Assembly: GCA_014860575.1 (NCBI GenBank)
Contig: JACZJK010000035.1
Location: 67,175-131,174 of the forward strand
Direction of reading: 5' to 3'
Length of the DNA stretch: 64,000 nt
Origin: Bacteroidales bacterium
GTDB taxonomy: Bacteria > Bacteroidota > Bacteroidia > Bacteroidales > JAAYJT01
Part shown: piece by piece, positions 11,044-34,758 of the stretch
Numbering within the stretch: position 1 is the stretch's first letter
Layout: the number at the start of each line of letters is the position of its first letter
The notes under the pieces: model-generated
Told to the model about the DNA's origin: nothing
The model's input: only the letters and a program-made list of their open reading frames with translations
Databases searched by the model: none
Program-made: the position numbers and the translations under genes

Positions 11044-12519
11044 ATGAAAAAAATAGGATACATACTCGTTGCACTTAGCTTATCAGTCCTCGTGGGTTGT
11101 GAGGATTTTCTTGACATCAATCCGCAGGGAGAACTGACCCAGGAAGCATTTCCGATAAATCAGGCCGATGCGCTGCTAGCTACCAATGCAGCTTATTCAA
11201 CACTTCGTAGTTGGAATTATCATTCAGGAGGTTTTCCGATCCTCGATATTATGTCGGATGATACACATAAAGGAAGTAACCCAAACGATGGTTTGAACAC
11301 CGTGGGGCCTTATGATAATTTCACTCACACTCCTACACAGGACGGCCTCGACCGCTGGTGGGCCTCATTATACCAGGGCATCAAACGCGCTAACGTAGTG
11401 GTTGAAAAGGTGCCTGAGCTAGAAATGGATAACAATTTAAAGAACCGCTATATTGGCGAGGCCAGGTTTTTGCGCGGTTTGTATTATTTCGATCTTGTAA
11501 GGGCTTGGAGTGGCGTACCACTGGTAACTACTACTGTAGTGCCTCTCCAGCTTCCGCGTGCAAGCGTTCAGGAAGTATATGATCTTGTAGAGCAGGATCT
11601 TTTATTTGCTGTGAGCAACTTACCCGAAAAGAGCGGTTACAGCGCCAATGATTTGGGCCGTGCTTCAAAAGGGGCAGCCAGGGCATTGCTGGCCAGGTTC
11701 TATCTTTTTAAAGGCGATTTTGTGAACGCTGAAAAATATGCACTTGAGGTAATTCAATCAAATGAATATGACCTTGAACCGAACTTTGAAGACGCCAATG
11801 GCAAAAATGGCGAGCATGGTGTTGAGTCTGTTTTTGAGATAGGCGCTATGGAAACCGAAGGTGCAGTTGGAAATCAGTATGCCAATACACAAGGCGTTCG
11901 TGGAACACCGAACCGTGGATGGGGTTTTAACCGTCCTTCGCTCAATCTGCGCAATGCATTTGAAGAGGATGATCCGCGTTTGAAACTCACAATCATTGAT
12001 CTTGGAGACGAAATTGATGGTATTTTGATACTGGGCGATGGTACAACTCCTGATGAAACCTTTGATGAGCAGGGAAATTTGGTTGAAGTAGAATGTTACA
12101 ACCGCAAAGTGTGGATTCCGGGAACTTCAACCAATACCCAATTTGGCCATAACCGACGTTTGATCAGATTTTCTGATGTACTATTAATGGCCGCCGAAGC
12201 GCTGAACGAGAATGGCAAACCAGGCGAAGCATTGTTACATCTTAACGAGGTTCGTAATAGAGCGCGGCACGGCAACGGTGAAATTTTGCCTGATATCACA
12301 ACAACCAATAAAGATGAACTTCGCGATCTGATCCTTTTCGAACGCAGGGTAGAACTGGCTATGGAAGGACACCGATTCTGGGATCTTGTAAGAACCGGAA
12401 AAGCACCCCAGTTGTTGGGCCCTCTTGGATACCAGCAAGGCAAACATGAACTACTTCCAATTCCGCAAAATGAGATTGACATTTCGCAGGGATCATTATC
12501 ACAGAATACGAACTGGTAA
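11044..12519 (+). CDS. SusD/RagB-family nutrient-binding outer-membrane lipoprotein
   Basis: Lipobox LVGC followed by EDFLD, which is typical of the SusD N-terminus. The size (491 aa) and the position directly after SusC fit. Confidence 0.9.
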   Translation: MKKIGYILVALSLSVLVGCEDFLDINPQGELTQEAFPINQADALLATNAAYSTLRSWNYHSGGFPILDIMSDDTHKGSNPNDGLNTVGPYDNFTHTPTQDGLDRWWASLYQGIKRANVVVEKVPELEMDNNLKNRYIGEARFLRGLYYFDLVRAWSGVPLVTTTVVPLQLPRASVQEVYDLVEQDLLFAVSNLPEKSGYSANDLGRASKGAARALLARFYLFKGDFVNAEKYALEVIQSNEYDLEPNFEDANGKNGEHGVESVFEIGAMETEGAVGNQYANTQGVRGTPNRGWGFNRPSLNLRNAFEEDDPRLKLTIIDLGDEIDGILILGDGTTPDETFDEQGNLVEVECYNRKVWIPGTSTNTQFGHNRRLIRFSDVLLMAAEALNENGKPGEALLHLNEVRNRARHGNGEILPDITTTNKDELRDLILFERRVELAMEGHRFWDLVRTGKAPQLLGPLGYQQGKHELLPIPQNEIDISQGSLSQNTNW

Positions 12520-12574
12520 GCAGTTATTAGAATCAACATAAAAACCAATTAATCATTCATTAAAAATTATCATT

Positions 12575-13852
12575 ATGAAAAAATTTACTCTTCTTTTAGT
12601 TGCGATGCTGGCAGTGGCCGGCATATCACGTGCTCAAATGGTCGAAGACTTTGAGCATATTAATTTAAATATGATGCTTGGTGGAGCTGATGACAATAGT
12701 ACCATGACGATTGTTCCAAATCCGGATCCAAGTGGTATAAACGTCAGTTCACATGTCGTGAAATTTGATCGTAGCCAGCATGGTGTGCCCTGGGGTGGAT
12801 TCTGGTCATCCTTGCCCGAACCACTTGACCTGACTGTTAATAAGTATGTGCATGTGCGTGTATGGAAGCCACGGATCAGCCCACTGAGGTTTAAAATTGA
12901 AGGAGGCCCCGGCGCAAATACTGAAGTTGCCAGTATGAACCCCCAAACTCTCACTGAAGAATGGGAAGATATCGTTTTTGATTTTTCAGGCGTTACCGGC
13001 GAATGGAATGTAGTAGTCTTTATGCCCGATTTCGAAGATCCTCTGACATTAGAGGATGACATTGTGATCTATTTTGACTACATCATGGTAAATAACGACC
13101 CAACTCCCGGCAGCGCTGCTGCATATGTTGTTGAAGATTTTGATCACATCCAATTGAACCTTATGCTTGGTGGAGCCGATGACAACAGCAGTATGACGGT
13201 TGTTGGTAATCCAGATCCAACTGGTATTAACGAAAGCGGACACGTTGTGAAATATGAACGCAGTCAGCACGGCGTTCCATGGGGAGGTTTCTGGTCTGCG
13301 CTGCCAGCACCTCTTGACCTGACTGATAATAAGTTTGTTTATGTAAAAGTATGGAAACCACGTATCAGCCCTCTTAGATTTAAGGTTGAAGGTGGACCAA
13401 GTGCCAACCTGGAAATTGGCAGCATGTATCCTCAAACCCTTACAGGGGAATGGGAAGAGATTGTTTTCGATTTTTCTGAAAAAACTGGCAGCTGGAACGT
13501 AATTGCTTTTATGCCCGACTTTGAAGATCCACTCACCCTGACTGATGATATTGTTATTTATTTTGACGACATCAGGGTTGGGGGAGATCCTTTATTTACT
13601 TATGAGCCAGACAAGGCAAATCAACTGCAAGTGTATCCAAACCCTGCAAGTGATTTTATAACAATTAGAAATTCAGAAAAAATACAAACTGTTGAGATTT
13701 ACGATCTGGCTGGCAGACTTATGTATTCTGCCAACACGCAGACACTTGAATCTCAGGTGGATGTTTCTGATTTGAATCAGGGTATCTACATTCTTCGAGT
13801 TACTGCCAATAACACTCCGCTCAATACTAAAATAAATATTATGCGTTTTTAA
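12575..13852 (+). CDS. Secreted non-catalytic protein: two tandem CBM-like (jelly-roll) units + T9SS C-terminal sorting domain
   Basis: Signal peptide (..AGISRAQ). Two 151-aa units are about 77% identical (117/151 by hand alignment). The C-terminal T9SS-type tail reads VYPNPASDFITI ... GIYILRV. No catalytic motif recognised. Confidence 0.8.
   Translation: MKKFTLLLVAMLAVAGISRAQMVEDFEHINLNMMLGGADDNSTMTIVPNPDPSGINVSSHVVKFDRSQHGVPWGGFWSSLPEPLDLTVNKYVHVRVWKPRISPLRFKIEGGPGANTEVASMNPQTLTEEWEDIVFDFSGVTGEWNVVVFMPDFEDPLTLEDDIVIYFDYIMVNNDPTPGSAAAYVVEDFDHIQLNLMLGGADDNSSMTVVGNPDPTGINESGHVVKYERSQHGVPWGGFWSALPAPLDLTDNKFVYVKVWKPRISPLRFKVEGGPSANLEIGSMYPQTLTGEWEEIVFDFSEKTGSWNVIAFMPDFEDPLTLTDDIVIYFDDIRVGGDPLFTYEPDKANQLQVYPNPASDFITIRNSEKIQTVEIYDLAGRLMYSANTQTLESQVDVSDLNQGIYILRVTANNTPLNTKINIMRF
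12638..13579 (+). repeat. Intragenic tandem duplication (2 x 453 nt units, 489-nt period)
   Basis: Unit 1 is 12638-13090 (MVEDFEHINLNMMLGGADDN...IVIYFDYIMV). Unit 2 is 13127-13579 (VVEDFDHIQLNLMLGGADDN...IVIYFDDIRV). They are joined by a 12-aa linker, NNDPTPGSAAAY. Confidence 0.95.
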
Positions 13853-13893
13853 GTAATAATTCTAACTAATCATTCAATTTTAAACTAAGTAGT

Positions 13894-15144
13894 ATGAAAA
13901 GAAAGCAGTTTTTTTTAATTCCTCTGGCAGCGTTGGCCATTACAGCAATGGTTTTCACCGCCTGTAAGAAAGATGATGATCCAAAGGATCTTACTTTGGA
14001 AACCCTAGTTGCTGGTACAATAGATCTTAATGCGGCTGTGGCGCCGACCACTGTTCCTCTGGAGCCGACCATTGTTGCTACATTCAGCACAGAAATTGAT
14101 CCGGCGACAGCAATTCCTGCAAACATTACACTAACACAGAATTATGACAATACCGACATTGAACTCACAATCACCGTTGCAGGTAAAAGCATAACTGTTG
14201 TTCCTAAAACAGTACTTGGAAGCGGAACACTCTATGACCTGAAGTTTAAAGCAGGCCTTAAATCAACCGAGGATAAATTCATGACAGAAGTTTCACGTAA
14301 TTTCACCACCGAAGGCACTTTTGCCCCTGCGGGTGTAATTGCTCATTGGACTTTTGAAGACAATGCCAACGATGTAGCAGGTTCATACAATCCAGCTGCC
14401 AACGGCATTGTTGACATAGCTTATGTTGCATCACGCAATGCTGCTGCAGGCAAAGCTGCAGATTTTAACGGAACCAGCAGTATCATTGAGATTCCCAATG
14501 GCGACGTATTAATTAATACAAAGGATTTTACTATATCATTCTGGGTAAAGGCCATGGATCAGGGCAAAGGGCATTTTGTTATTGGCCTGGGCGCATTCTA
14601 TGGTTTGCAGTTCGAGATGTTTGGGGGTCTTGACGGAGCTAAATTTGCCATCCGCTATGAACTGGAAGATGGCACAACAGCCGGTGAAGACATGTGGTTT
14701 CCAAGCGATGCAACTTTTAATGGAAATGGTGGCTGGCAGGGATGGGACTTTGCTAAAGCAATTGCCCCTGCCGATATGATTTCAATGCTTAAAGAAAAGT
14801 GGCTGCATGTAATTTATACCTATGATGGTGATGCTAAAAAAGCAACTTTGTATTACAACGGCGAGAAAATGAAAAGTTTCGATTTCAATCTCTGGCCTGA
14901 TGGCGACGCCAAGCGTGGAGTTAAAGGTATGAAATACGATGGCGCTATGCCCGATGTAAATAATGACCTTGCATTTGGGTTCATCCAGTCAAGAGCCGGA
15001 TCAATGTGGGCTAACGAACCATGGGGTGGTTATACCTTCCCTGAAGCTAACCACTTCAAAGGTCAGCTCGACGATATCAGGATCTACCACAAAGTTTTAA
15101 CTCCAGCGGAAATTCTGTTGATGTACAACTCAGAAAAACCGTAA
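13894..15144 (+). CDS. Surface lipoprotein candidate: Ig-like (SbsA/Big_5-type) domain + LamG/concanavalin-type lectin domain
   Basis: Lipobox FTAC followed by the acidic KKDDDPKD. The N-terminal Ig-like domain resembles that of the next gene. LamG-type motifs are HWTFEDNANDVAGS, FTISFWVKA and GQLDDIRIYHKVLTPAEI. Confidence 0.75.
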   Translation: MKRKQFFLIPLAALAITAMVFTACKKDDDPKDLTLETLVAGTIDLNAAVAPTTVPLEPTIVATFSTEIDPATAIPANITLTQNYDNTDIELTITVAGKSITVVPKTVLGSGTLYDLKFKAGLKSTEDKFMTEVSRNFTTEGTFAPAGVIAHWTFEDNANDVAGSYNPAANGIVDIAYVASRNAAAGKAADFNGTSSIIEIPNGDVLINTKDFTISFWVKAMDQGKGHFVIGLGAFYGLQFEMFGGLDGAKFAIRYELEDGTTAGEDMWFPSDATFNGNGGWQGWDFAKAIAPADMISMLKEKWLHVIYTYDGDAKKATLYYNGEKMKSFDFNLWPDGDAKRGVKGMKYDGAMPDVNNDLAFGFIQSRAGSMWANEPWGGYTFPEANHFKGQLDDIRIYHKVLTPAEILLMYNSEKP

Positions 15145-17317: not shown

Positions 17318-18703
17318 ATGAAGAAGATATTTACTTTGTTTTTAATCGCATTATCAGTGTCTGCCTGCAACCAACCAAATCAAGTAGTGTTTAAATCGCA
17401 TGGGAAAATAGATTACCCATTATCACAGGCTGATGAACTCATGCTCGATTCTATACAGAAGAAAACATTTCTCTTCTTTGTGAATGAACAGCATCCTGAA
17501 TGGGGTATTGTGAAAGACCGCTCTGCTGACTGGGCGCCATCAAGCATAGCTTCCACAGGATTTGGTATTCCATGTTTCGCAATTGGAGTAGAAAGAAATT
17601 GGATTGCACGGGAAGAAGCAGCGCAAATAGTGCTCTACATGCTAAATTTCTTTTACAATTCTGAGCAGAGCACTGACGCGCTGGCAACAGGCTACAAAGG
17701 ATTTTATTATCACTTCCTAACGATGGACACCGGAGAACGTGAGTGGGATTGCGAACTTTCCTCGATTGATACCGGCTTGCTGATGATGGGGATCATATTT
17801 GCGCGTAATTATTTCAATGCAGACAATAAAACTGAAAAGCAAATTCGCTCACTTGCCAGTAAACTAATTGACCGACTGGAATGGAATTTCCTGGACATGC
17901 CAGCCGAAAGCCAGCATCCCCATACGATTTCAATGGGCTGGGATCCCGAAGAAGGTTTGCATAGCTGGGGTTGGACGGGGTATAATGAAGCGCTGTTCCT
18001 ATATGTGCTGGCCGCCGGTACCGGAATGGAAAATGTTGAAAGAAGCTATAATTCATGGTTATCAACATACAAATGGAATACTCCTTATGAAGGCCTTTCG
18101 CATGTTGCTTTCCCTCCATTGTTCGGTCATCAGTTTTCGCAGGCATTTATTGATTACCGCGGCCTTGTTGATTCATACATGAAAGAAAAAGGCATTGACT
18201 ATTTCGAAAATTCGCGCCGTGCAACCTATGTTCAGCAACAATACGCCATTGAAAACCCACATGGCTGGGTCGGTTATGATTCGCTTTGCTGGGGTGTAAC
18301 TGCAAGTGATGGACCCACAGAGATTCATAATTTCGATGACAAAGAATTTTTAGGGTATGCAGGCAGGGGAGCTGCCGGACCTGAGTACAATTATTTTGAT
18401 GATGGAACCATCGCTCCTTATGCATCGCTTTCATCCTTGCCGTTTGCACCCGAAATTGTTCTTCCAACCATTCATTCCATGATTGAGAAGCACGGCGACA
18501 GCATCTGGGGCAAATACGGATTCTACGATGCTTTCAATCCAACAGCCAAATGGGTGAATGATGATTTTATCGGCATCGCCCAGGGTCCTATGCTTATCAT
18601 GATTGAAAATTTCAGAACCGGCCTGGTCTGGGATTATGTGATGAAAGATCCTGTTATCCAGGATGGATTGAATAAGCTGGGCTATGAATACATGGGCAAG
18701 TAA
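17318..18703 (+). CDS. Lipoprotein, GH144-like catalytic domain only (paralog of 15213-17198)
   Basis: Lipobox VSAC followed by the non-acidic NQPNQ. Motifs are colinear with the upstream paralog: SIASTGFGIPCFAIGVERNW, WGKYGFYDAFNP and IAQGPMLIMIENFRTGLVW. Confidence 0.7.
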   Translation: MKKIFTLFLIALSVSACNQPNQVVFKSHGKIDYPLSQADELMLDSIQKKTFLFFVNEQHPEWGIVKDRSADWAPSSIASTGFGIPCFAIGVERNWIAREEAAQIVLYMLNFFYNSEQSTDALATGYKGFYYHFLTMDTGEREWDCELSSIDTGLLMMGIIFARNYFNADNKTEKQIRSLASKLIDRLEWNFLDMPAESQHPHTISMGWDPEEGLHSWGWTGYNEALFLYVLAAGTGMENVERSYNSWLSTYKWNTPYEGLSHVAFPPLFGHQFSQAFIDYRGLVDSYMKEKGIDYFENSRRATYVQQQYAIENPHGWVGYDSLCWGVTASDGPTEIHNFDDKEFLGYAGRGAAGPEYNYFDDGTIAPYASLSSLPFAPEIVLPTIHSMIEKHGDSIWGKYGFYDAFNPTAKWVNDDFIGIAQGPMLIMIENFRTGLVWDYVMKDPVIQDGLNKLGYEYMGK

Positions 18704-18735
18704 ATTTTTAAAACGATGTCCCATGAGAATATACT

Positions 18736-18797
18736 GCGAAGGCGCAAAGACGCGGGGAAATTTAAAGTCTTTGCGCCTTCGCGCCTTAGCGGTTTAA
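18736..18797. repeat. Palindromic GC-rich intergenic element, copy 1
   Basis: Perfect 16-bp stem: GCGAAGGCGCAAAGAC (18736-18751) pairs with GTCTTTGCGCCTTCGC (18767-18782), with a 15-nt loop. The 24-nt core CGCCTTCGCGCCTTAGCGGTTTAA (18774-18797) is identical to 26598-26621. Confidence 0.85.
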
Positions 18798-18806
18798 AAC
18801 ATTAGA

Positions 18807-21800
18807 ATGATGAAGAAATTTGCACTCTCTACATTATTGTTTTTAATGACAACGGTCGGTTTGGCTCAGATCCAAACGCTTGATCAGTTTGAAAACAAAT
18901 CCGGCTGGGATTTTATACAGTCCGATGGAGTTGATCTCAACCTCTCAGTAGACAAAGGATTAAGCGATAATGCACTCCGCTTTGATTATGATTTCACAAA
19001 AGGAACCGGCTACGGGGGCATCCAGAAATTGTTTCCGATTGACCTGCCCGAAAACTATGAGTTTACCTTTTATTTGAAAGCCGAATCGCCGGCAAACAAT
19101 TTTGAGGTTAAATTTATTGATAGCAGCGGCGACAATGTCTGGTGGGTGAATAACCGCAATTATGATTTCCCGGAAGAATGGAAAAAAATCACAATTAAAA
19201 AAAGGCATATCGGATTTGCCTGGGGTCCCACCGATGACCGTGACTTAAAACGCATTGACCGGATTGAGTTTACAATTGCCTCTTTCGTTGGCGGCAAAGG
19301 CACAATCTGGATTGATGATCTCAAATTTAAGCCGCTTCCGCCCGAAACAGCTACTTATCCTGATCCCATTGTAACTGCCTCTTCATCGCATCGTAATCAC
19401 CAACCCGCGCTTATCCTCGACGATTCAAAGGAATCTTCATGGCTGAGCCGTAAGCGTAAAAATCAGTTTGTGCATTTTGATTTTCGAACCCAGAGGGAAT
19501 TTGGTGGCCTACAGATTACGTGGGAAAAGGATCTTCGCGCCAAAAGCTTTGAAATACTTGTTTTCGATGACAATCAATCCTGGGAGAAAGTTTACTCAGT
19601 CAGATCAAATCATGGAGATGTAAGCTTCATAAGAATGCCTGAAACCGAAGCCAGATATTTAAAGATTAATCTTTTAGATGGGGCTACAAAGAACAGGTTC
19701 GGGATTGCTGAAGTCAATTTTCTAGACATAAAAAGCGCTATGTCAGCCAATGATTTTCTCAGATACACTGCTCAGAATTCTACCGCAGGTGATTATCCGC
19801 GCTATTTTCTTGAGCAGGCTTCGTACTGGACTGTAACAGGCGTTAACAACGATATGAAAGAAGCCATGATCAATGAAGATGGAATGGTTGAGGTGGATAA
19901 AGCCCTGTTTTCAATTGAACCAATGATAATATCCGGTGGCAAACTCTATAACTGGAACAATGTACAATCAAACCAATCTTTGAATTATTTTGAAGATGAT
20001 GGCGGGCTTGGTTTCACACCATCAGTAAGCTGGCTTTACGATGATATAAATTTTGTGACAGGGATTTCTGCCAGCGGAGAAGCCAATGTTGATTCCCGCC
20101 TGAATATTGCTTACTCATTCACCAACACTTCAGGCCAAACGAAGGATTTCGAGTTTTATTTGCTGGTACGGCCATTCCAGGTGAATCCTTATTACCAGTT
20201 TTTGAACCTCGAGGGCGGCGCTGGTAAAATTCATTCGATCCGTGGACCGGAAAAAGGTAGGGCAATTACCGTTGATAAGAAGAAACTGTTCTCTACCATA
20301 GATTATGATCATTTCGGGGCATTTGCTTTTGATGCTGGCAACGTAGTTGATTTTATCCGGAATGGCGAAATTCCTTACAGGACTTCTGCCACTGATCCGC
20401 AAGGGCTGGCAGGTGGAGTGATGAAATATATTATGAGACTGAATCCCGGCGAGCGCAAGGAATTCTTTGTAGTAGTCCCGTTTTATGATCCTGTTCCTGA
20501 GAACCACGAAATAAGCAACGAAATAATTGCAGAATATTTCAGACAATCTACCGGGTTCTGGAGAAATCGGGTGGACCACATTAAATTCAACCTGCCCGAA
20601 TCGGCTGACAGGATTGTAAATGCCTATAAATCGAACCTTGCCTATATATTGATCAACCGCGATAAAGCCGGGATCCAACCCGGTTCGCGTTCGTACGAGA
20701 GAAGCTGGATACGTGATGGATCGCTTACTTCATCGGCGCTGTTAAAATCAGGAATTGTTGAAGAGGTGAAAGACTTCATCAACTGGTATGCCGATCACCA
20801 GTACGAAAGTGGCAAAGTTCCCTGTGTTGTGGATTTTCGCGGGCCCGATCCGGTTCCCGAGCACGATAGCCACGGCCAACTGATTTATCTGATCCGTGAA
20901 TATTTCAACTTCACAAAGGACACAGCCTTTCTGCGATCAAAAAATGAAAACGTTTTAATGGCAGTAGAGTACATTGAATCGTTAATTGCCGAAAGATCAA
21001 CCGACCATTTCAAATTCGGCAACGACAGCATCCGGGCTTATTACGGCCTGGTTCCGGAATCCATCAGTCATGAAGGCTATTCCGAAAAACCCATGCACTC
21101 CTATTGGGATAATTTTTTTATCATGAAAGGTTTAAAAGATGCGGTTGAAATCCAGAAGATTCTTGGCGAGCAAGAGCATTACGAAAGCATTGCAAAAACA
21201 CGCGACACTTTCAGGGAAAACCTGTACAATTCCTTTAAATTGGCGATGAAAACCAGGAACATTGATTACCTCCCCGGTTGTGTTGAGCTTGGCGATTTTG
21301 ATGCCACATCAACAACCATCGCCTTAACACCATGCAACGAACTGAATAATCTTCCCCGGCCGGAGGTTTATAATACCTTCGAAAGGTATTACAAGTATTT
21401 CAGGACCCGACGAGACGGTGAAATTGAATGGATCAATTACACCCCTTACGAGACGCGCCTGATAGGTTCTTACATCATTTTGGATCAACCGGAAAGGGCG
21501 CATGCATTAATTGATTTTTTCCTCGACGATCAGCGGCCTCAGGGTTGGCATCATTGGGCCGAAGTTGTTTGGAAAGATTACCGCATTCCGCGATTTATAG
21601 GCGATATGCCACATACCTGGGTCGGCAGCGACTTCATCAATGCCATCCGCTCAATGTTTGTTTATGAAAATGAGTACGATGAATCGCTTGTACTCGCGTC
21701 GGCGCTTTACCAGGATTGGATTGATTCACCTGAAGGAATTTCGGTTGAGAACCTTCCGACCTATTATGGTGAAATCTCATTTTCAATTAAGAAGGAAAAG

Positions 21801-21983
21801 TCGCGCTACCACTTCTCAATTTATGGTGATGCGAACCTTCCCGCCAATGGAATTAAAATCAGGAATTTCAACAGTTTGTTAATGCCTGAAAAAATCACCA
21901 TCAATGGTATTGAGACCCATGATTTTAATGAAAGGGAGATTTCGGTAAGGGAATTTCCTGCAGAAGTAATTGTTTATTATTAA
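18807..21983 (+). CDS. Secreted multidomain protein: CBM-like jelly roll + F5/8 type C (discoidin)-like domain + GH15-like (alpha/alpha)6 region, candidate uncharacterised glycosidase
   Basis: Signal peptide (..TTVGLAQ). The N-terminal ~160 aa are a sandwich-like domain ending WIDDLKFKP. The discoidin-like segment reads PALILDDSKESSWLS ... RYLKINLLDG..FGIAEVNFLD. The C-terminal half has SYERSWIRDGS, which resembles the YxxxWxRD motif of GH15. Confidence 0.55.
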   Translation: MMKKFALSTLLFLMTTVGLAQIQTLDQFENKSGWDFIQSDGVDLNLSVDKGLSDNALRFDYDFTKGTGYGGIQKLFPIDLPENYEFTFYLKAESPANNFEVKFIDSSGDNVWWVNNRNYDFPEEWKKITIKKRHIGFAWGPTDDRDLKRIDRIEFTIASFVGGKGTIWIDDLKFKPLPPETATYPDPIVTASSSHRNHQPALILDDSKESSWLSRKRKNQFVHFDFRTQREFGGLQITWEKDLRAKSFEILVFDDNQSWEKVYSVRSNHGDVSFIRMPETEARYLKINLLDGATKNRFGIAEVNFLDIKSAMSANDFLRYTAQNSTAGDYPRYFLEQASYWTVTGVNNDMKEAMINEDGMVEVDKALFSIEPMIISGGKLYNWNNVQSNQSLNYFEDDGGLGFTPSVSWLYDDINFVTGISASGEANVDSRLNIAYSFTNTSGQTKDFEFYLLVRPFQVNPYYQFLNLEGGAGKIHSIRGPEKGRAITVDKKKLFSTIDYDHFGAFAFDAGNVVDFIRNGEIPYRTSATDPQGLAGGVMKYIMRLNPGERKEFFVVVPFYDPVPENHEISNEIIAEYFRQSTGFWRNRVDHIKFNLPESADRIVNAYKSNLAYILINRDKAGIQPGSRSYERSWIRDGSLTSSALLKSGIVEEVKDFINWYADHQYESGKVPCVVDFRGPDPVPEHDSHGQLIYLIREYFNFTKDTAFLRSKNENVLMAVEYIESLIAERSTDHFKFGNDSIRAYYGLVPESISHEGYSEKPMHSYWDNFFIMKGLKDAVEIQKILGEQEHYESIAKTRDTFRENLYNSFKLAMKTRNIDYLPGCVELGDFDATSTTIALTPCNELNNLPRPEVYNTFERYYKYFRTRRDGEIEWINYTPYETRLIGSYIILDQPERAHALIDFFLDDQRPQGWHHWAEVVWKDYRIPRFIGDMPHTWVGSDFINAIRSMFVYENEYDESLVLASALYQDWIDSPEGISVENLPTYYGEISFSIKKEKSRYHFSIYGDANLPANGIKIRNFNSLLMPEKITINGIETHDFNEREISVREFPAEVIVYY

Positions 21984-26634: not shown

Positions 26635-29600
26635 ATGAACATTATAAACCAATCAGGGCTCACCGTTAAATTCCTTGGAAATGGCTCAATCAAAAGTTTT
26701 GAAGCAGATCCCATCAGGATCAGCCTTAAAGAAACAACGCCTTTTTCAAAACCGGGAGCCAATATCTACCTTAGAAAAAGGTCAAAACCCATTGAGTTCA
26801 TAGCCCTCCTCGGACCCGAAAGCAATAGTCGGTTTAAAGTTTCCGGCGAGACTTTGATTGCCGGCGGCATCTGGCAGGGTATTGAATATCTTTGCTCACT
26901 CCGGCTTTCGCCGAAAAGTCTGAGCTGGCAGTTCATGATCGAAATCAACAACAAATCTGATGAAGAGGTCGAGCTTGATTTAATTTATGTGCAGGACATT
27001 GGATTGAAACCAATCAATTCAGGGCTGATCAATGAATATTATGTAAGCCAATACCTCGAAAGACGAATCCTTGAAGATCAAACCTTTGGCTCAGTAATAT
27101 GTTGCCGCCAGAATATGAAAGAAGCCATTGGCAATCCTTGGTTCATGATGGCTTGCGAAAATGGCGCTGTTGCAGGAAGCACGGATGGCATGCAGTTTTA
27201 TGGCAAAACTTACCGGGAAACCGGGATTCCTGAAGGTTTGATTATAGAAAGGCTGGGGGGCGAGTATGCCGGTGAATCATCTGTTGTTGTTTTGCAGGGA
27301 AAACCCTTCAAACTTGCTATAGGAGAAAATTTTAAGAGTGTTTTTTTTGCTACTTATTTGCACGATCACCCAAAGGCTTCATCAGAAGACGATCTGGGCC
27401 GCTTAGCCACCCTGAAATCGGAATTTGATATTAAGAATCCTTCCGGTAGTCCTGGCGAATGGTTAGCACCGGAAAAAAACATCTTCAATACTTCCGCTTT
27501 TTTCCCTGTTGAAGATTTAAATGATGTCGAACTGAACCAGTTTTTTGGCAACGAACGGCGACATCCTGAAAAAGTGGATGGCCGCTTATTGTCGTTTTTC
27601 AGCAAAGAGAACAGGCATATTGTACTCAGGGCAAAAGAGTTGCTTGCCGACCGGCCTCATGGCCATATCATGCAGGCCAAAGCCGGACTGGTACCTGATG
27701 AAAACATCGTATCCACCACTGCTTTTATGTTTGGTGTTTTCAATTCGCATCTTACACAGGGAAATACAAATTTCAATACACTGCTATCCATTTGCACGAG
27801 CCAGTTTAATCTTTCGCCAGAATCAGGCCAACGGATTTTTGTTGAAATAAATGACACACTCTATTTGCTTGGAGTTCCCTCCGCGTTTGAAATTGGCTTG
27901 AACCATTGCCGCTGGATTTATAAGCATGGCAAGTACTGCTTCCAGGTTCGAACCTGGACATCTAAATCAGCCCCACAGGTGAATATGGATGTCAAGGTTC
28001 TCAGGGGTGATGATGTGAGATTTATAATTACGCATGATTTTGATGGTTTGAACGGCTGGAAAGCTTTTACCGGAAACAACAATGGCGAATATATTTTCAG
28101 GCCAAAGCCAGATAGCATGATAGCCGGAAAATTTCCAGAAGCACAATTCCGGATAAGGGTTCAAAGCGAGAATGCTGAATTTTCGGCGAACGATAATGAA
28201 GTCTTTTACGGTAATGACAAGAGCTTATCTGATTCAAAGTACGTGCTGGATGTCAGGACAACTTCTGCGTTTTGTATGAGTTTTCTTGCTGAAGTAGGTT
28301 GCGAAGCCGAAATGATTCAGTTTGAAAACGCCGATGAACAGTGGCTCTCCGATTGCATTGATGCCGGTTTTGCATGGCAGGGCTTAAGTTTGAACCTATC
28401 TCTTGAAAGTCAACAGAAAGATGTTTTAGCTATTCGTGAAATCTTACCCTGGTATGGCATGAACGCTTTGACCCATTTTCTGACCCCATACGGCCTCGAA
28501 CAGTTCAGCGGCGCTGCCTGGGGAACACGCGATGTTGCCCAGGGGCCGGTTGAGTTGTTGCTGTGCCTGCAAAAATATGATGAAGCCAGGCAAGTTTTGC
28601 GCATTATCTTCTCGAACCAAAACCCTGATGGCGGCTGGCCGCAATGGTGGATGTTCGATAGCTATCACAACATCAGGGCGCATGATTCCAACGGCGATGT
28701 GGTTTACTGGTGCATCATAGCGCTTGCTAATTATGTCAAAGTTACCGGCGATACACGCATCCTTGACGAAGTACTCCCTTATTATCATCAAAACGGAATT
28801 AATGCTGCTGAAAAAACTTCACTCAGCGAGCACATGAACAGGCTGATCAATATGATTACCGGATCATTTATCCCGGGCACCGCGCTTGTGCCCTTTGGTG
28901 GCGGCGACTGGAATGATTCTTTACAACCTGTTAGTGAGCAACTCGCTCAACGCATGATCTCAAGCTGGACGGTAGAAATGAACTACCAGGCTTTTAAGGA
29001 TTATCAGCAGGTATTTATAAGAACCGGACAGACTGAAAAAGCCGGCGAACTGGCTCAGATTAGCGAAAGGATCAAATCTGATTTTAACAAATATCTTGTA
29101 AAAGATGGCGTGGTAGCAGGATATGGACTGGTGGAAAAAAATGGCAACATCAGTGTTTTGCTTCACCCGACTGATACCACAACCGGAATCCAATACAGTA
29201 TTTTACCCATGGAACGTGGCATACTCAGTGAAATCTTTACCAAAGAACAGGCCTTGCATCACCAGGATTTAATTGAAAAGCACCTGAAAGGCCCCGATGG
29301 CGCCCGCCTCATGGATCGCCCACTCAAATATAAAGGAGGCATTCGAACAATTTTTCAAAGAGCTGAAAGCAGTACTTTCTTTGGCCGCGAAATTGGCCTT
29401 ATGTATATGCATGAACATATCCGTTATGCAGAGTCATTGGCCCGCACGGGCAATGCCGATGCGTTTGTGAAAGCGCTTCGGCAGGCAATCTCGGTGGCTT
29501 ACAGGGATATTGTGGATTGTGGTGATATCCGCCAGGCAAATTGTTATTACAGCAGTTCAGATGTTGCTTTCAAAAGCAGGTATGAAGCTGATGAGCTTTA

Positions 29601-29979
29601 TGATAAGATTGCGGCTGGCAACATCACAGTCAGAGGTGGCTGGCGGGTGTATTCAAGTGGGCCGGGTATTTATATCGGGCTGATAATTTCAAAATTACTG
29701 GGCCTACGGATTGAATCTGATTATGTGATCCTTGACCCGGTTATGCCGTTTGCGTTTAGCGGGCTAAATGTTTCAATGAAATTTCTGAGCCATGACGTAA
29801 GGTTCAGATATAGAATAGAAGAAAACAACCACAGCCCGAAAACTGTTTTCATCAATATGCATCCTGTTGAGTTCACAAAAGAAGCAAATCCATACAGGAA
29901 TGGTGGTGTGATGATCCGCAAGGAAGCGTTTATCAAGATGTTGCATCAGGCATCAAACGAAATTGAAATTATCTTATAA
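26635..29979 (+). CDS. Cytoplasmic GH94-like glycoside phosphorylase (candidate 1,2-beta-oligoglucan phosphorylase)
   Basis: No signal peptide; 1114 aa. The (alpha/alpha)6-type region has AAWGTRDVAQGPVELL, NPDGGWPQWW and FGGGDWNDSLQP. GDWND is the catalytic-Asp motif I associate with GH94 phosphorylases. Confidence 0.65.
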   Translation: MNIINQSGLTVKFLGNGSIKSFEADPIRISLKETTPFSKPGANIYLRKRSKPIEFIALLGPESNSRFKVSGETLIAGGIWQGIEYLCSLRLSPKSLSWQFMIEINNKSDEEVELDLIYVQDIGLKPINSGLINEYYVSQYLERRILEDQTFGSVICCRQNMKEAIGNPWFMMACENGAVAGSTDGMQFYGKTYRETGIPEGLIIERLGGEYAGESSVVVLQGKPFKLAIGENFKSVFFATYLHDHPKASSEDDLGRLATLKSEFDIKNPSGSPGEWLAPEKNIFNTSAFFPVEDLNDVELNQFFGNERRHPEKVDGRLLSFFSKENRHIVLRAKELLADRPHGHIMQAKAGLVPDENIVSTTAFMFGVFNSHLTQGNTNFNTLLSICTSQFNLSPESGQRIFVEINDTLYLLGVPSAFEIGLNHCRWIYKHGKYCFQVRTWTSKSAPQVNMDVKVLRGDDVRFIITHDFDGLNGWKAFTGNNNGEYIFRPKPDSMIAGKFPEAQFRIRVQSENAEFSANDNEVFYGNDKSLSDSKYVLDVRTTSAFCMSFLAEVGCEAEMIQFENADEQWLSDCIDAGFAWQGLSLNLSLESQQKDVLAIREILPWYGMNALTHFLTPYGLEQFSGAAWGTRDVAQGPVELLLCLQKYDEARQVLRIIFSNQNPDGGWPQWWMFDSYHNIRAHDSNGDVVYWCIIALANYVKVTGDTRILDEVLPYYHQNGINAAEKTSLSEHMNRLINMITGSFIPGTALVPFGGGDWNDSLQPVSEQLAQRMISSWTVEMNYQAFKDYQQVFIRTGQTEKAGELAQISERIKSDFNKYLVKDGVVAGYGLVEKNGNISVLLHPTDTTTGIQYSILPMERGILSEIFTKEQALHHQDLIEKHLKGPDGARLMDRPLKYKGGIRTIFQRAESSTFFGREIGLMYMHEHIRYAESLARTGNADAFVKALRQAISVAYRDIVDCGDIRQANCYYSSSDVAFKSRYEADELYDKIAAGNITVRGGWRVYSSGPGIYIGLIISKLLGLRIESDYVILDPVMPFAFSGLNVSMKFLSHDVRFRYRIEENNHSPKTVFINMHPVEFTKEANPYRNGGVMIRKEAFIKMLHQASNEIEIIL

Positions 29980-33948: not shown

Positions 33949-34758
33949 ATGAAGACCTGGATTTCGATATTATTGAGTAGCTCAATAATAATTGTCCTTT
34001 TAACTGTACTATTCAATTATCCGGTTAAGGCTCAAATTGCCAGAAATTTTGAACCGAGGGTCTATCACAACAATATCGACAGCTTGCCATACCGGATTAT
34101 GTTTCCTGAAAATTTTGACCCGTTACTGAAATACCCCCTGATCCTGTTTTTGCATGGTGCAGGTGAACGCGGAAACAACAATGAAAGCCAGTTAATACAC
34201 GGTGGCAGGTTTTTCGCTTCCGATACCAACAGGCAAAATTATCCCTCAATTGTAGTTTTTCCGCAATGTCCTGCTGATAGTTATTGGGCCAATGTCAATT
34301 TTTCTTTCGATCCTGAAGGCAAGCGTTCTTTTAGTTTCGATCCGTCTGGCGAACCAACGTTGCCGTTGCAACTCGTTATGCAGTTGCTTGACTCTATGCT
34401 GAACCAGAGCTGGGTAGATAAAGATCGGTTTTATCTGGGCGGACTTTCCATGGGCGGAATGGGCACCTTCGAGTTGCTGTACCGCAAACCCGAAGTTTTT
34501 GCAGCAGCCTTTCCAATTTGTGGCGGAGGAAACCCGGATCTGATCAACGAAAAAGTAAAATCAGTTGAAATATGGGCTTTCCACGGCCAGGATGATCCGG
34601 TAGTTCTGCCTGAACTTTCCGTAAAAATGATAGCGGCAGTCGAAAAAGCCGGTAGCAAAACCAAACTGACCCTTTATCCCGATGTCGGACATAACGCCTG
34701 GGATCATGTTTTCCTGGAACCGGAATTACTTCCCTGGCTTTTCTCGGTTCGCAGGTAG
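33949..34758 (+). CDS. Secreted alpha/beta-hydrolase esterase (carboxylesterase / predicted-peptidase family)
   Basis: N-terminal hydrophobic signal or anchor. LILFLHGAGERGNNN, nucleophile elbow GLSMGGMG, later FHGQDDPVV and GHNAW, consistent with a Ser-Asp-His triad. Confidence 0.75.
   Translation: MKTWISILLSSSIIIVLLTVLFNYPVKAQIARNFEPRVYHNNIDSLPYRIMFPENFDPLLKYPLILFLHGAGERGNNNESQLIHGGRFFASDTNRQNYPSIVVFPQCPADSYWANVNFSFDPEGKRSFSFDPSGEPTLPLQLVMQLLDSMLNQSWVDKDRFYLGGLSMGGMGTFELLYRKPEVFAAAFPICGGGNPDLINEKVKSVEIWAFHGQDDPVVLPELSVKMIAAVEKAGSKTKLTLYPDVGHNAWDHVFLEPELLPWLFSVRR

Follow-up and report, generated by a model that had tools for sequence, protein, structure and literature searches.

A candidate GH15-related glycoside hydrolase accompanying GH144 in a β-1,2-glucan utilisation locus of a Bacteroidales bacterium

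A 64,000-nucleotide stretch of a Bacteroidales genome (contig JACZJK010000035.1; hereafter the window) carries, at 18807..21983 of its forward strand, a gene for a 1058-amino-acid (aa) protein, referred to here as the target protein. On balance, the target is likely to be an active periplasmic glycoside hydrolase (GH) that represents a new family related to GH15 and acts as a dedicated partner of the GH144 β-1,2-glucanases, as judged from sequence comparison, structure modelling and gene context. Its fold is a known one and its mechanism, hydrolysis with inversion of the anomeric configuration, is probably known as well; the family is new, and its specificity is probably new too. The bond preferred by the enzyme is proposed tentatively to be a single α-1,6 linkage, either that of α-1,6-cyclised β-1,2-glucans or that of the linear pentaose remaining after digestion by GH144 and GH3 enzymes; specificity for β-1,2 bonds is about equally likely.

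Sequence relationships, predicted fold and conserved residues

The open reading frame (ORF) has an ATG start and 1058 codons followed by a stop codon, and it is regarded as a real gene because a word-indexed search returned more than 2174 homologues. No Pfam-A model, the newest of which are dated 2025, covers aa 305-1058 (window 19719-21980), and aa 310-1058 gave nothing significant against the sequences of the Protein Data Bank (PDB), searched first as a single sequence and then with family and barrel profiles. The faint relationships that can be traced lead to GH15. The target matches TIGR01577, the NCBIfam model of GH15, at an E-value of 3e-5 (22.7 bits, against a cut-off of 820.7 bits), has a faint NCBIfam match to TreH1 (GH15 trehalase) as well, and scores 11.2 bits with Pfam PF00723 (E 0.17, below the 22-bit cut-off); none of the curated GH15 thresholds (PF00723 and the NCBIfam GH15 models) is reached. 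Among 45 diverse family members, TIGR01577 matches 44 (best E 3.6e-15) and TreH1 matches 34, and the Pfam models found include Bac_rhamnosid6H (26 members), Glyco_hydro_15 (PF00723; 21) and GDE_C (21). In some members, among them P0248 (residues 405-714 against model positions 68-391) and P0260, TIGR01577 aligns with the N-domain as well as with the barrel, from which it follows that the domain order of the GH15 type is homologous, beyond mere similarity.

Against the PDB, the barrel profile had non-significant matches only, to GH15 enzymes (dextran dextrinase, isomaltose glucohydrolase and glucodextranase, in alignments that centre on W-x-R-D), a GH78 rhamnosidase, a methylmannose-polysaccharide hydrolase and two unrelated proteins. 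With a profile of five fungal-type and plasmid GH15 sequences, hhalign placed Y630, W634, R636 and D637 on Y48, W52, R54 and D55 of the Aspergillus niger glucoamylase (a sequence verified as identical to 3eqa_A) and aligned nothing else. The A. niger sequence taken singly likewise aligned over the motif alone, and global mode gave nothing meaningful. Searches of plasmids by tblastn for GH15 of the N-domain type returned solely fungal-like GH15, with a Paracoccus gene that has no N-domain, and a dextran dextrinase fragment used for the same purpose returned nothing useful. No GH15 gene was found in the 86 loci examined. By sequence comparison, the target is a deep member of the six-hairpin superfamily, with GH15 as its nearest family.

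A first AlphaFold2 (AF2) model, built from 49 close homologues (~70% identity), had a predicted local distance difference test (pLDDT) below 50 for aa 590-990 and was replaced by a second, built from a diverse alignment of 90 sequences (34-58% identity). The second model of aa 305-1058 has a pLDDT of 95.7 and a predicted template modelling (pTM) score of 0.95. It predicts, in order, a β-sandwich, a linker helix, a 12-helix (α/α)6 barrel and a C-terminal β-sandwich. The barrel helices are α1 598-617, α2 635-646, α3 652-662, α4 687-703, α5 706-728, α6 766-786, α7 789-817, α8 833-840, α9 851-869, α10 880-891, α11 895-907 and α12 937-951. In a Foldseek search of the PDB, the GH94 cellobiose and chitobiose phosphorylases came out on top (E 2e-17, TM 0.60), together with the GH15 enzymes dextran dextrinase 9ju0 (E 8e-17) and glucoamylase 1lf6 (root-mean-square deviation 5.5 Å, TM 0.60). 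Further matches were glucodextranase 1ug9, GH116, GH78, GH65, the GH94 domain of cyclic glucan synthase, and the exo-β-D-arabinanase ExoMA2, all of the matches being at 10-14% identity. According to the model, the C-terminal ~750 aa thus have the architecture of bacterial GH15, GH94 and GH65 enzymes at ~12% identity; the fold class is clear, and none of the families is close.

Comparison with the closest known systems places these similarities side by side. Like the target, bacterial and archaeal GH15 enzymes (glucoamylase 1LF6, glucodextranase 1UG9/1ULV, isomaltose glucohydrolase 5Z3A, trehalase TreH and dextran dextrinase 9JU0) have an N-domain β-sandwich, a helical linker and an (α/α)6 barrel, and the linker of the target can be compared with the helix-loop-helix described for bacterial GH15 (PMC12446779). 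GH15 also shares the Y-x3-W-x-R-D spacing and is the best relative of the target family by hidden Markov model (HMM); in the AF2 model, two glutamates that are invariant in the target family fall in the α5→α6 and α11→α12 loops. On the other hand, identity to GH15 is only ~12%, scores are 10-50 bits against cut-offs of 22 (Pfam) and 820 (TIGR01577), the target has an additional CBM11-like domain, a CBM32 domain (CBM, carbohydrate-binding module) and a C-terminal β-sandwich, and its context is β-1,2-glucan, whereas that of GH15 is starch, dextran or trehalose. The GH94 1,2-β-oligoglucan phosphorylase (SOGP) and the cellobiose and chitobiose phosphorylases share domain order and barrel with the target, and SOGP belongs to a common pathway; what sets the target apart from SOGP is a signal peptide, an invariant glutamate in the α11→α12 loop and the lack of the segment GGDWND. 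GH65, which forms clan GH-L with GH15 and includes both phosphorylases and hydrolases, likewise combines a β-sandwich, a barrel and a C-terminal β-sandwich, but it has no significant sequence match to the target and a TM of ~0.42 (6w0p). Membership of the SGL clan (GH144, GH162, GH189 and GH192-194) was tried and rejected for want of a sequence signal: Pfam finds no PF10091 match in the target, and the family and barrel profiles matched none of the PDB chains of these families at E up to 10. The clan shares the (α/α)6 barrel and the substrate class with the target, which differs from it in its N-domain β-sandwich and GH15-type motifs.

Across 90 diverse relatives (34-58% identity), 31 alignment columns are invariant. 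They include R628, Y630, R636, D637, D687, D705, S752, S754, H755, E756, Y758, W767, D768, D830, Y881, E882, R884, E919, D933, H936 and W938, and the acidic residues among the invariant positions include E756, E919, D637, D687, D768, D830, E882 and D933. The motif Y-x3-W-x-R-D is present once in the target, at aa 630-637, with a spacing identical to that of GH15 region S1 (A. niger Y48-W52-R54-D55), and HMMER and hhalign align the two. D637 is presumed to be the subsite -1 aspartate; in GH15, the aspartate of W-x-R-D binds O4 and O6 of the subsite -1 glucose (PMC12446779). The motif E685-H-D687-S-H-G690 may correspond to GH15 region S2 (Q-x-D-G), which it resembles, and the motif from G932 to W938 probably forms part of the active-site wall. 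GH15 enzymes hold their general acid glutamate in the α5→α6 loop and their general base glutamate in the α11→α12 loop (PMC12446779). From the topology of the model, rather than from superposition, E756 is the candidate general acid and E919 the candidate general base. The modelled location of these two glutamates in the GH15 acid/base loops, together with D637 by alignment, supports an active enzyme with GH15-like chemistry.

A preliminary description of this DNA had quoted four motifs from the 1058-aa ORF, all of which are present (LDDSKESSWLS, aa 204-214; RYLKINLLDG, aa 283-292; FGIAEVNFLD, aa 298-307; SYERSWIRDGS, aa 629-639). It had proposed a GH15-like (α/α)6 region bearing YxxxWxRD, in agreement with the modelled barrel, the invariant motif and the TIGR01577 matches in 44 of 45 members, and it had called the rest unlike known glucoamylases, which fits a protein that lies below every curated threshold and has no sequence match in the PDB. 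The paired acidic residues that it had suggested looking for in a predicted structure may be E756 and E919; no characterised family claims the protein, and its acidic residues are conserved in the 90 relatives. The GH15-type N-domain, the C-terminal β-sandwich, the large multi-phylum family and the candidate substrate are additions to that description.

Ahead of the 750-aa core stand two further β-sandwiches, both of which had been described earlier as of a sugar-binding type; this holds clearly for the second, an F5/8 type C domain, while the first is solely weakly CBM11-like. PF00754 matches aa 189-300 with an E-value of 1.1e-15 (58.3 bits against a gathering score of 28.2 bits), and the family profile matches the CBM32 structures 4zz5/2rva in the PDB at 3e-8. 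For aa 23-177, the match to PDB entries 1v0a/2lro improves from an E-value of 0.05 for the single sequence to 0.004 for the family profile, and Pfam CBM_11 (PF03425) matches 2 of 45 relatives (E 0.009). Some family members of ~770 aa are without the N-terminal β-sandwiches; the barrel is always kept.

The N-terminus reads as MMKKFALSTLLFLMTTVGLA followed by Q, without a lipobox cysteine; a consensus sequence of 49 homologues is likewise hydrophobic over this stretch, and the Pfam scan found no C-terminal domain of the type IX secretion system (T9SS) in the target. Because the signal reads as type I and has no lipobox cysteine, the protein is predicted to be soluble and periplasmic. Opposite the N-domain and barrel lies an antisense ORF of 182 aa (window 20130-20678, reverse strand, TTG start), which is most likely spurious, as it overlaps a strongly conserved coding region.

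Family distribution and gene neighbourhood

The best 120 of the more than 2174 homologues are 69-100% identical to the target, are ~1060 aa long and are named solely "discoidin domain-containing protein" or "hypothetical protein". An exhaustive search with aa 305-1058 found at least 2281 clusters (50% identity) at E up to 1e-3 and 735 at E up to 1e-30, most of them with the full architecture, and relatives occur in at least 586 species genomes. The family extends over Bacteroidota, Ignavibacteriota, Calditrichota, Verrucomicrobiota, Phycisphaerae (Planctomycetota), Gammaproteobacteria (Proteobacteria) and Kryptoniota. No paper describing it was found in a literature search, and the 750-aa core is without a solved structure or a functional name. 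Two clusters, P0030 (1516 aa) and P0099 (1489 aa), which represent 34 and 33 member sequences, respectively, have a GH144 (PF10091) N-terminus followed by the full architecture of the target family.

The association with GH144 is also seen in gene order. Within flanks of up to 10 kb on each side of the target homologue, a GH144 homologue is present in 61 of 82 loci. Sixty-six loci are informative, having 2 kb or more of sequence upstream; of these, 57 have a GH144 gene no further than 10 kb away, and in 36 it immediately precedes the target homologue. Genomes of Lentimicrobium and Tenuifilaceae keep the order GH144-target-MFS_2-GH35-SOGP. In Croceibacterium, a TonB-dependent receptor (TBDR) gene, GH144 and the target homologue follow one another, and the target start overlaps the GH144 stop. 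A plasmid of Xanthomonas sacchari (NZ_CP010410; L089) has the order LacI-TBDR-GH144-ABC transporter-target homologue; here the homologue (11140-14034) matches as three separate segments, which lie in frames 1, 2 and 1, is not a listed gene, and appears frameshifted, by sequencing indels or as a pseudogene.

In the window, the target gene is part of a co-directional polysaccharide utilisation locus (PUL) of the Bacteroidota type, with intergenic gaps of 11-120 bp. A Y_Y_Y/Reg_prop regulator, SusC, SusD, a protein with a T9SS C-terminal domain, a Big_5/Laminin_G_3 lipoprotein and two PF10091 (GH144) proteins, here GH144a and GH144b, are encoded first, and are followed by the target, an MFS_2 symporter, GH35, GH94 SOGP, GH3, a Sugar_tr transporter and an esterase (Table 1). 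The preliminary description had placed the gene between GH144-like genes and an oligosaccharide symporter and had suggested a periplasmic role on substrates derived from β-1,2-glucan; the PF10091 genes upstream and MFS_2 downstream confirm the position, and the synteny with GH144, MFS_2, the GH35 homologue and SOGP is consistent with the role. Judging from the N-termini, the target, GH144b and GH3 have export signals, and GH35 and SOGP have none. This suggests a layout in which GH144a, a lipoprotein (C-KKDNGD), is at the surface, the lipoprotein GH144b, the target and GH3 are in the periplasm, and GH35 and SOGP are in the cytoplasm.

Table 1. Features of the target gene and of neighbouring genes, in window coordinates
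Feature	Position	Strand	Basis or remark
Complete target ORF	18807..21983	+	Uncharacterised GH15-related family
Signal peptide, aa 1-20 (MMKKFALSTLLFLMTTVGLA, then Q)	18807..18866	+	Type I, read from sequence
First β-sandwich, aa 23-177	18873..19337	+	Weakly CBM11-like; all-β in AF2 model
F5/8 type C (discoidin, CBM32-like) domain, aa 189-306	19371..19724	+	PF00754
GH15/GH94-type N-domain β-sandwich, aa 330-560	19794..20486	+	AF2, Foldseek, TIGR01577 in P0248
Linker helix and short strand, aa 571-597	20517..20597	+	AF2; helix is aa 571-589
(α/α)6 barrel, 12 helices, aa 598-951, presumed catalytic	20598..21659	+	AF2, Foldseek, HMMs, hhalign
Y630-E-R-S-W634-I-R636-D637, into α2 N-terminus	20694..20717	+	Y630, R636, D637 invariant; W634 nearly
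E685-H-D687-S-H-G690, α4 start	20859..20876	+	D687, G690 invariant; aligns with SOGP 'HDSNGD'
S752-I-S-H-E756-G-Y758, α5→α6 loop	21060..21080	+	S752, S754, H755, E756, G757, Y758 invariant
W914-H-H-W-A-E919-V-V-W, α11→α12 loop	21546..21572	+	E919 invariant
G932-D933-M-P-H936-T-W938, into α12	21600..21620	+	G932, D933, P935, H936, W938 invariant
C-terminal β-sandwich, aa 952-1058	21660..21980	+	AF2
Regulator, 970 aa	4767-7679	+	Reg_prop and Y_Y_Y (Pfam)
425-aa protein with T9SS C-terminal sorting domain	12575-13852	+	Between SusD and GH144a
Big_5/Laminin_G_3 lipoprotein	13894-15144	+	N-terminus C-KKDDD; between SusD and GH144a
GH144 homologue directly upstream	17318..18703	+	Lipoprotein (...SVSAC-NQPNQ); PF10091 E 1.5e-73
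MFS_2 oligosaccharide symporter, 697 aa	22007..24100	+	23 bp past target stop; PF13347 E 1e-63
GH35 homologue of IaSGT, 811 aa	24112-26547	+	No signal peptide; 7vkw E 2e-154
GH94 1,2-β-oligoglucan phosphorylase (SOGP)	26635-29979		
α/β-Hydrolase esterase (S9/DLH/Abhydrolase_2 type)	33949-34758	+	Signal peptide; end of locus

The best PDB match of the adjacent GH144 protein is XcSGL (8xul, 1e-102), an endo-β-1,2-glucanase of Xanthomonas (PMC12102758). The MFS_2 gene is present in 33 of 82 loci and, in the Lentimicrobium locus L001 and in L002, occupies the same position and has a conserved product length of 692-697 aa. Pfam covers aa 49-442 of the symporter; a helical, coiled-coil-looking stretch of ~200 aa comes next, and the protein ends with the hydrophobic segment …AVEIGLPLLLSIFSVFFLL…, so that it looks like a transporter with a long insertion ahead of its last transmembrane helix. 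In 32 of 82 loci, GH35 follows the MFS_2 gene; the protein of the window has 811 aa, against 724 aa in the 7vkw chain, and its close homologue IaSGT is a β-1,2-glucosyltransferase of Ignavibacterium (PMC8861115). In the Lentimicrobium locus, a gene of the GH172 family (17814-19802) stands between GH35 and SOGP; it is absent from the window.

At the start of the locus, the regulator has no histidine kinase or receiver domain detectable by Pfam at E up to 1e-3, and it is therefore not a classical hybrid two-component system. The T9SS-sorted protein and the Big_5/Laminin_G_3 lipoprotein may be proteins that bind β-1,2-glucan at the cell surface. The esterase, which has homologues close to the target in 7 of 82 loci, may serve to deacylate natural β-1,2-glucans by removing their succinyl or acetyl groups.

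Proposed pathway, substrate and competing explanations

In the proposed pathway, the surface GH144 lipoprotein would cut β-1,2-glucan outside the cell and SusC/SusD would import the fragments, which would be processed in the periplasm by the second GH144, the GH3 β-glucosidase and the target protein. The MFS_2 symporter would then bring β-1,2-oligosaccharides into the cytoplasm for the GH35 glucosyltransferase and SOGP. Within the target, which would act in an exo fashion, a terminal glucosyl residue may occupy the subsite -1 pocket, held, by analogy to GH15, by R636 and D637. E756 would protonate the leaving group, and E919, positioned by Y630, would activate a water molecule, so that hydrolysis would proceed by single displacement with inversion of the anomer. 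Attachment of the enzyme to the glucan could be the task of the two N-terminal β-sandwiches.

Natural β-1,2-glucans carry β-1,6 branches, acyl and phospho substituents and, in the α-1,6-cyclised forms (CβGα), a single α-1,6 linkage (PMC11842490). The GH144 enzyme CpSGL and the GH3 enzyme BtBGL together degrade CβGα to glucose and a "non-degradable" linear pentaose with one α-1,6 linkage, and CβGα synthases occur in a wide variety across Proteobacteria (10.1101/2025.04.21.649730). All characterised GH15 hydrolases cleave α-glucosidic bonds at non-reducing termini, and two of them are specific for α-1,6 bonds (PMC12446779). For β-1,2 bonds, the locus of the window is already supplied with endo-β-1,2-glucanases, a GH3 β-glucosidase and SOGP. 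Since the target is predicted to be periplasmic, is encoded beside homologues of CpSGL and BtBGL, and has exo-acting, inverting α-glucosidases as its nearest relatives, the α-1,6 bond of CβGα or of the residual pentaose is put forward as its candidate substrate.

A number of points weigh against this assignment or against parts of it. The α-1,6-cyclised glucans are documented in few genera, whereas the target family accompanies GH144 in many phyla, and an enzyme with two CBM-like domains would be expected to act on a polymer more than on a pentasaccharide. The hhalign link to the β-1,2-specific GH94 SOGP (see below) means that homology alone leaves the anomer unfixed. Of the 66 informative loci, 9 have no GH144 in the vicinity; most loci of this kind still look like sites of sugar uptake, with GH3 and an ABC transporter, with GH94 or with a TBDR. 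With regard to catalysis, the W-E-E of GH15 region S3 (taken from the verified A. niger sequence) is replaced by S-H-E-G, with a glycine and not a second glutamate after the putative acid, and D681 appears to stand at the position of the GH15 S2 tryptophan. The target fails the thresholds of every curated family tested, and even the conserved catalytic residues of GH15 do not decide between inversion and retention (PMC12446779).

About as likely as the α-1,6 assignment, and to be held just as tentatively, is a hydrolase specific for β-1,2 bonds, which would release glucose or sophorose from the ends of β-1,2-oligosaccharides or open the ring of cyclic β-1,2-glucans. Such an enzyme would be the hydrolase counterpart of GH94 SOGP, with a glutamate base in place of phosphate. 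The syntenic enzymes all act on β-1,2 linkages, GH144 fusions exist, and the CBM-like domains would fit a polymer. GH94 enzymes are moreover the top Foldseek matches, and hhalign links the target to the SOGP of the locus with 82-84% probability (E ~1e-5), in an alignment that begins where the β-sandwich ends and extends to α7, pairing 'AAWGTRDV' of SOGP with 'RSWIRDGS' and 'HDSNGD' with 'HDSHGQ', so that the motifs W..RD and HDS.G are held in common. The same alignment, however, leaves 'GGDWND' of SOGP as an insertion without counterpart in the target; this segment lies in the α5→α6 loop and is the site of the GH94 catalytic aspartate. Pfam Glyco_hydro_94 is found neither in the target at E up to 1 nor among the 25 families listed for 45 relatives, whereas GH15, GH78 and GDE_C models are listed. 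In addition, the Y-x3-W-x-R-D spacing is GH15-like and unlike the W-G-T-R-D of SOGP, and two GH144 enzymes, one GH3 enzyme and SOGP cover the β-1,2 bonds already.

That last point leaves the target as the orphan of a locus whose other enzymes already provide for β-1,2 bonds in full, and this would also suit a debranching or decapping enzyme for some other non-β-1,2 feature of natural β-1,2-glucans, e.g., the β-1,6-glucosyl branches of osmoregulated periplasmic glucans, as branches and substituents do occur (PMC11842490). This is considered improbable: GH3 BtBGL already removes side chains completely (10.1101/2025.04.21.649730), and no feature of the target sequence indicates β-1,6 specificity.

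Less probable again is a retaining transglycosylase that remodels or cyclises glucans in the manner of dextran dextrinase. Among GH15 enzymes, dextran dextrinase gives the best match in Foldseek and HMM comparisons alike, and it is a retaining enzyme despite its GH15 glutamates (PMC12446779), and β-1,2-glucan metabolism includes unusual transglycosylases (the GH35 SGT, GH189 and GH186); the catabolic context of the PUL and an identity to dextran dextrinase of ~13% speak against the idea. A glycoside phosphorylase of the GH94 or GH65 type is very unlikely: although these families have the fold and domain order of the target, and the invariant R628, R884 and H936 could in principle bind phosphate, the signal peptide implies a periplasmic location, the invariant E919 lies in the loop where hydrolases hold their base, and the catalytic aspartate motif of GH94 is absent. 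An equally slight chance is given to a non-catalytic glucan-binding protein, which the two CBM-like domains would suit, as ~30 residues are invariant in 90 relatives, eight of them acidic, and cluster in the barrel loops, and as the N-terminal CBMs, and never the barrel, are dispensable in the ~770-aa members.

Implications for β-1,2-glucan utilisation

β-1,2-Glucans are periplasmic and secreted polysaccharides with roles in bacterial osmoadaptation, symbiosis and virulence, and the enzymes that degrade them have, to our knowledge, been identified only since 2014, family by family. In the loci examined, the target family is the most constant companion of GH144, and its characterisation would probably create a new GH family and fill a gap in β-1,2-glucan utilisation. 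The α-1,6-cyclised β-1,2-glucans are linked to virulence and are made by Xanthomonas, Ralstonia and many other Proteobacteria. Should the target indeed cleave their α-1,6 bond, it would complete the catabolic pathway of the α-1,6-cyclised glucans and would be the first enzyme to allow full degradation of the cyclic glucans that serve Xanthomonas and Ralstonia as virulence factors; such an enzyme would be an analytical tool and, possibly, an anti-virulence reagent.

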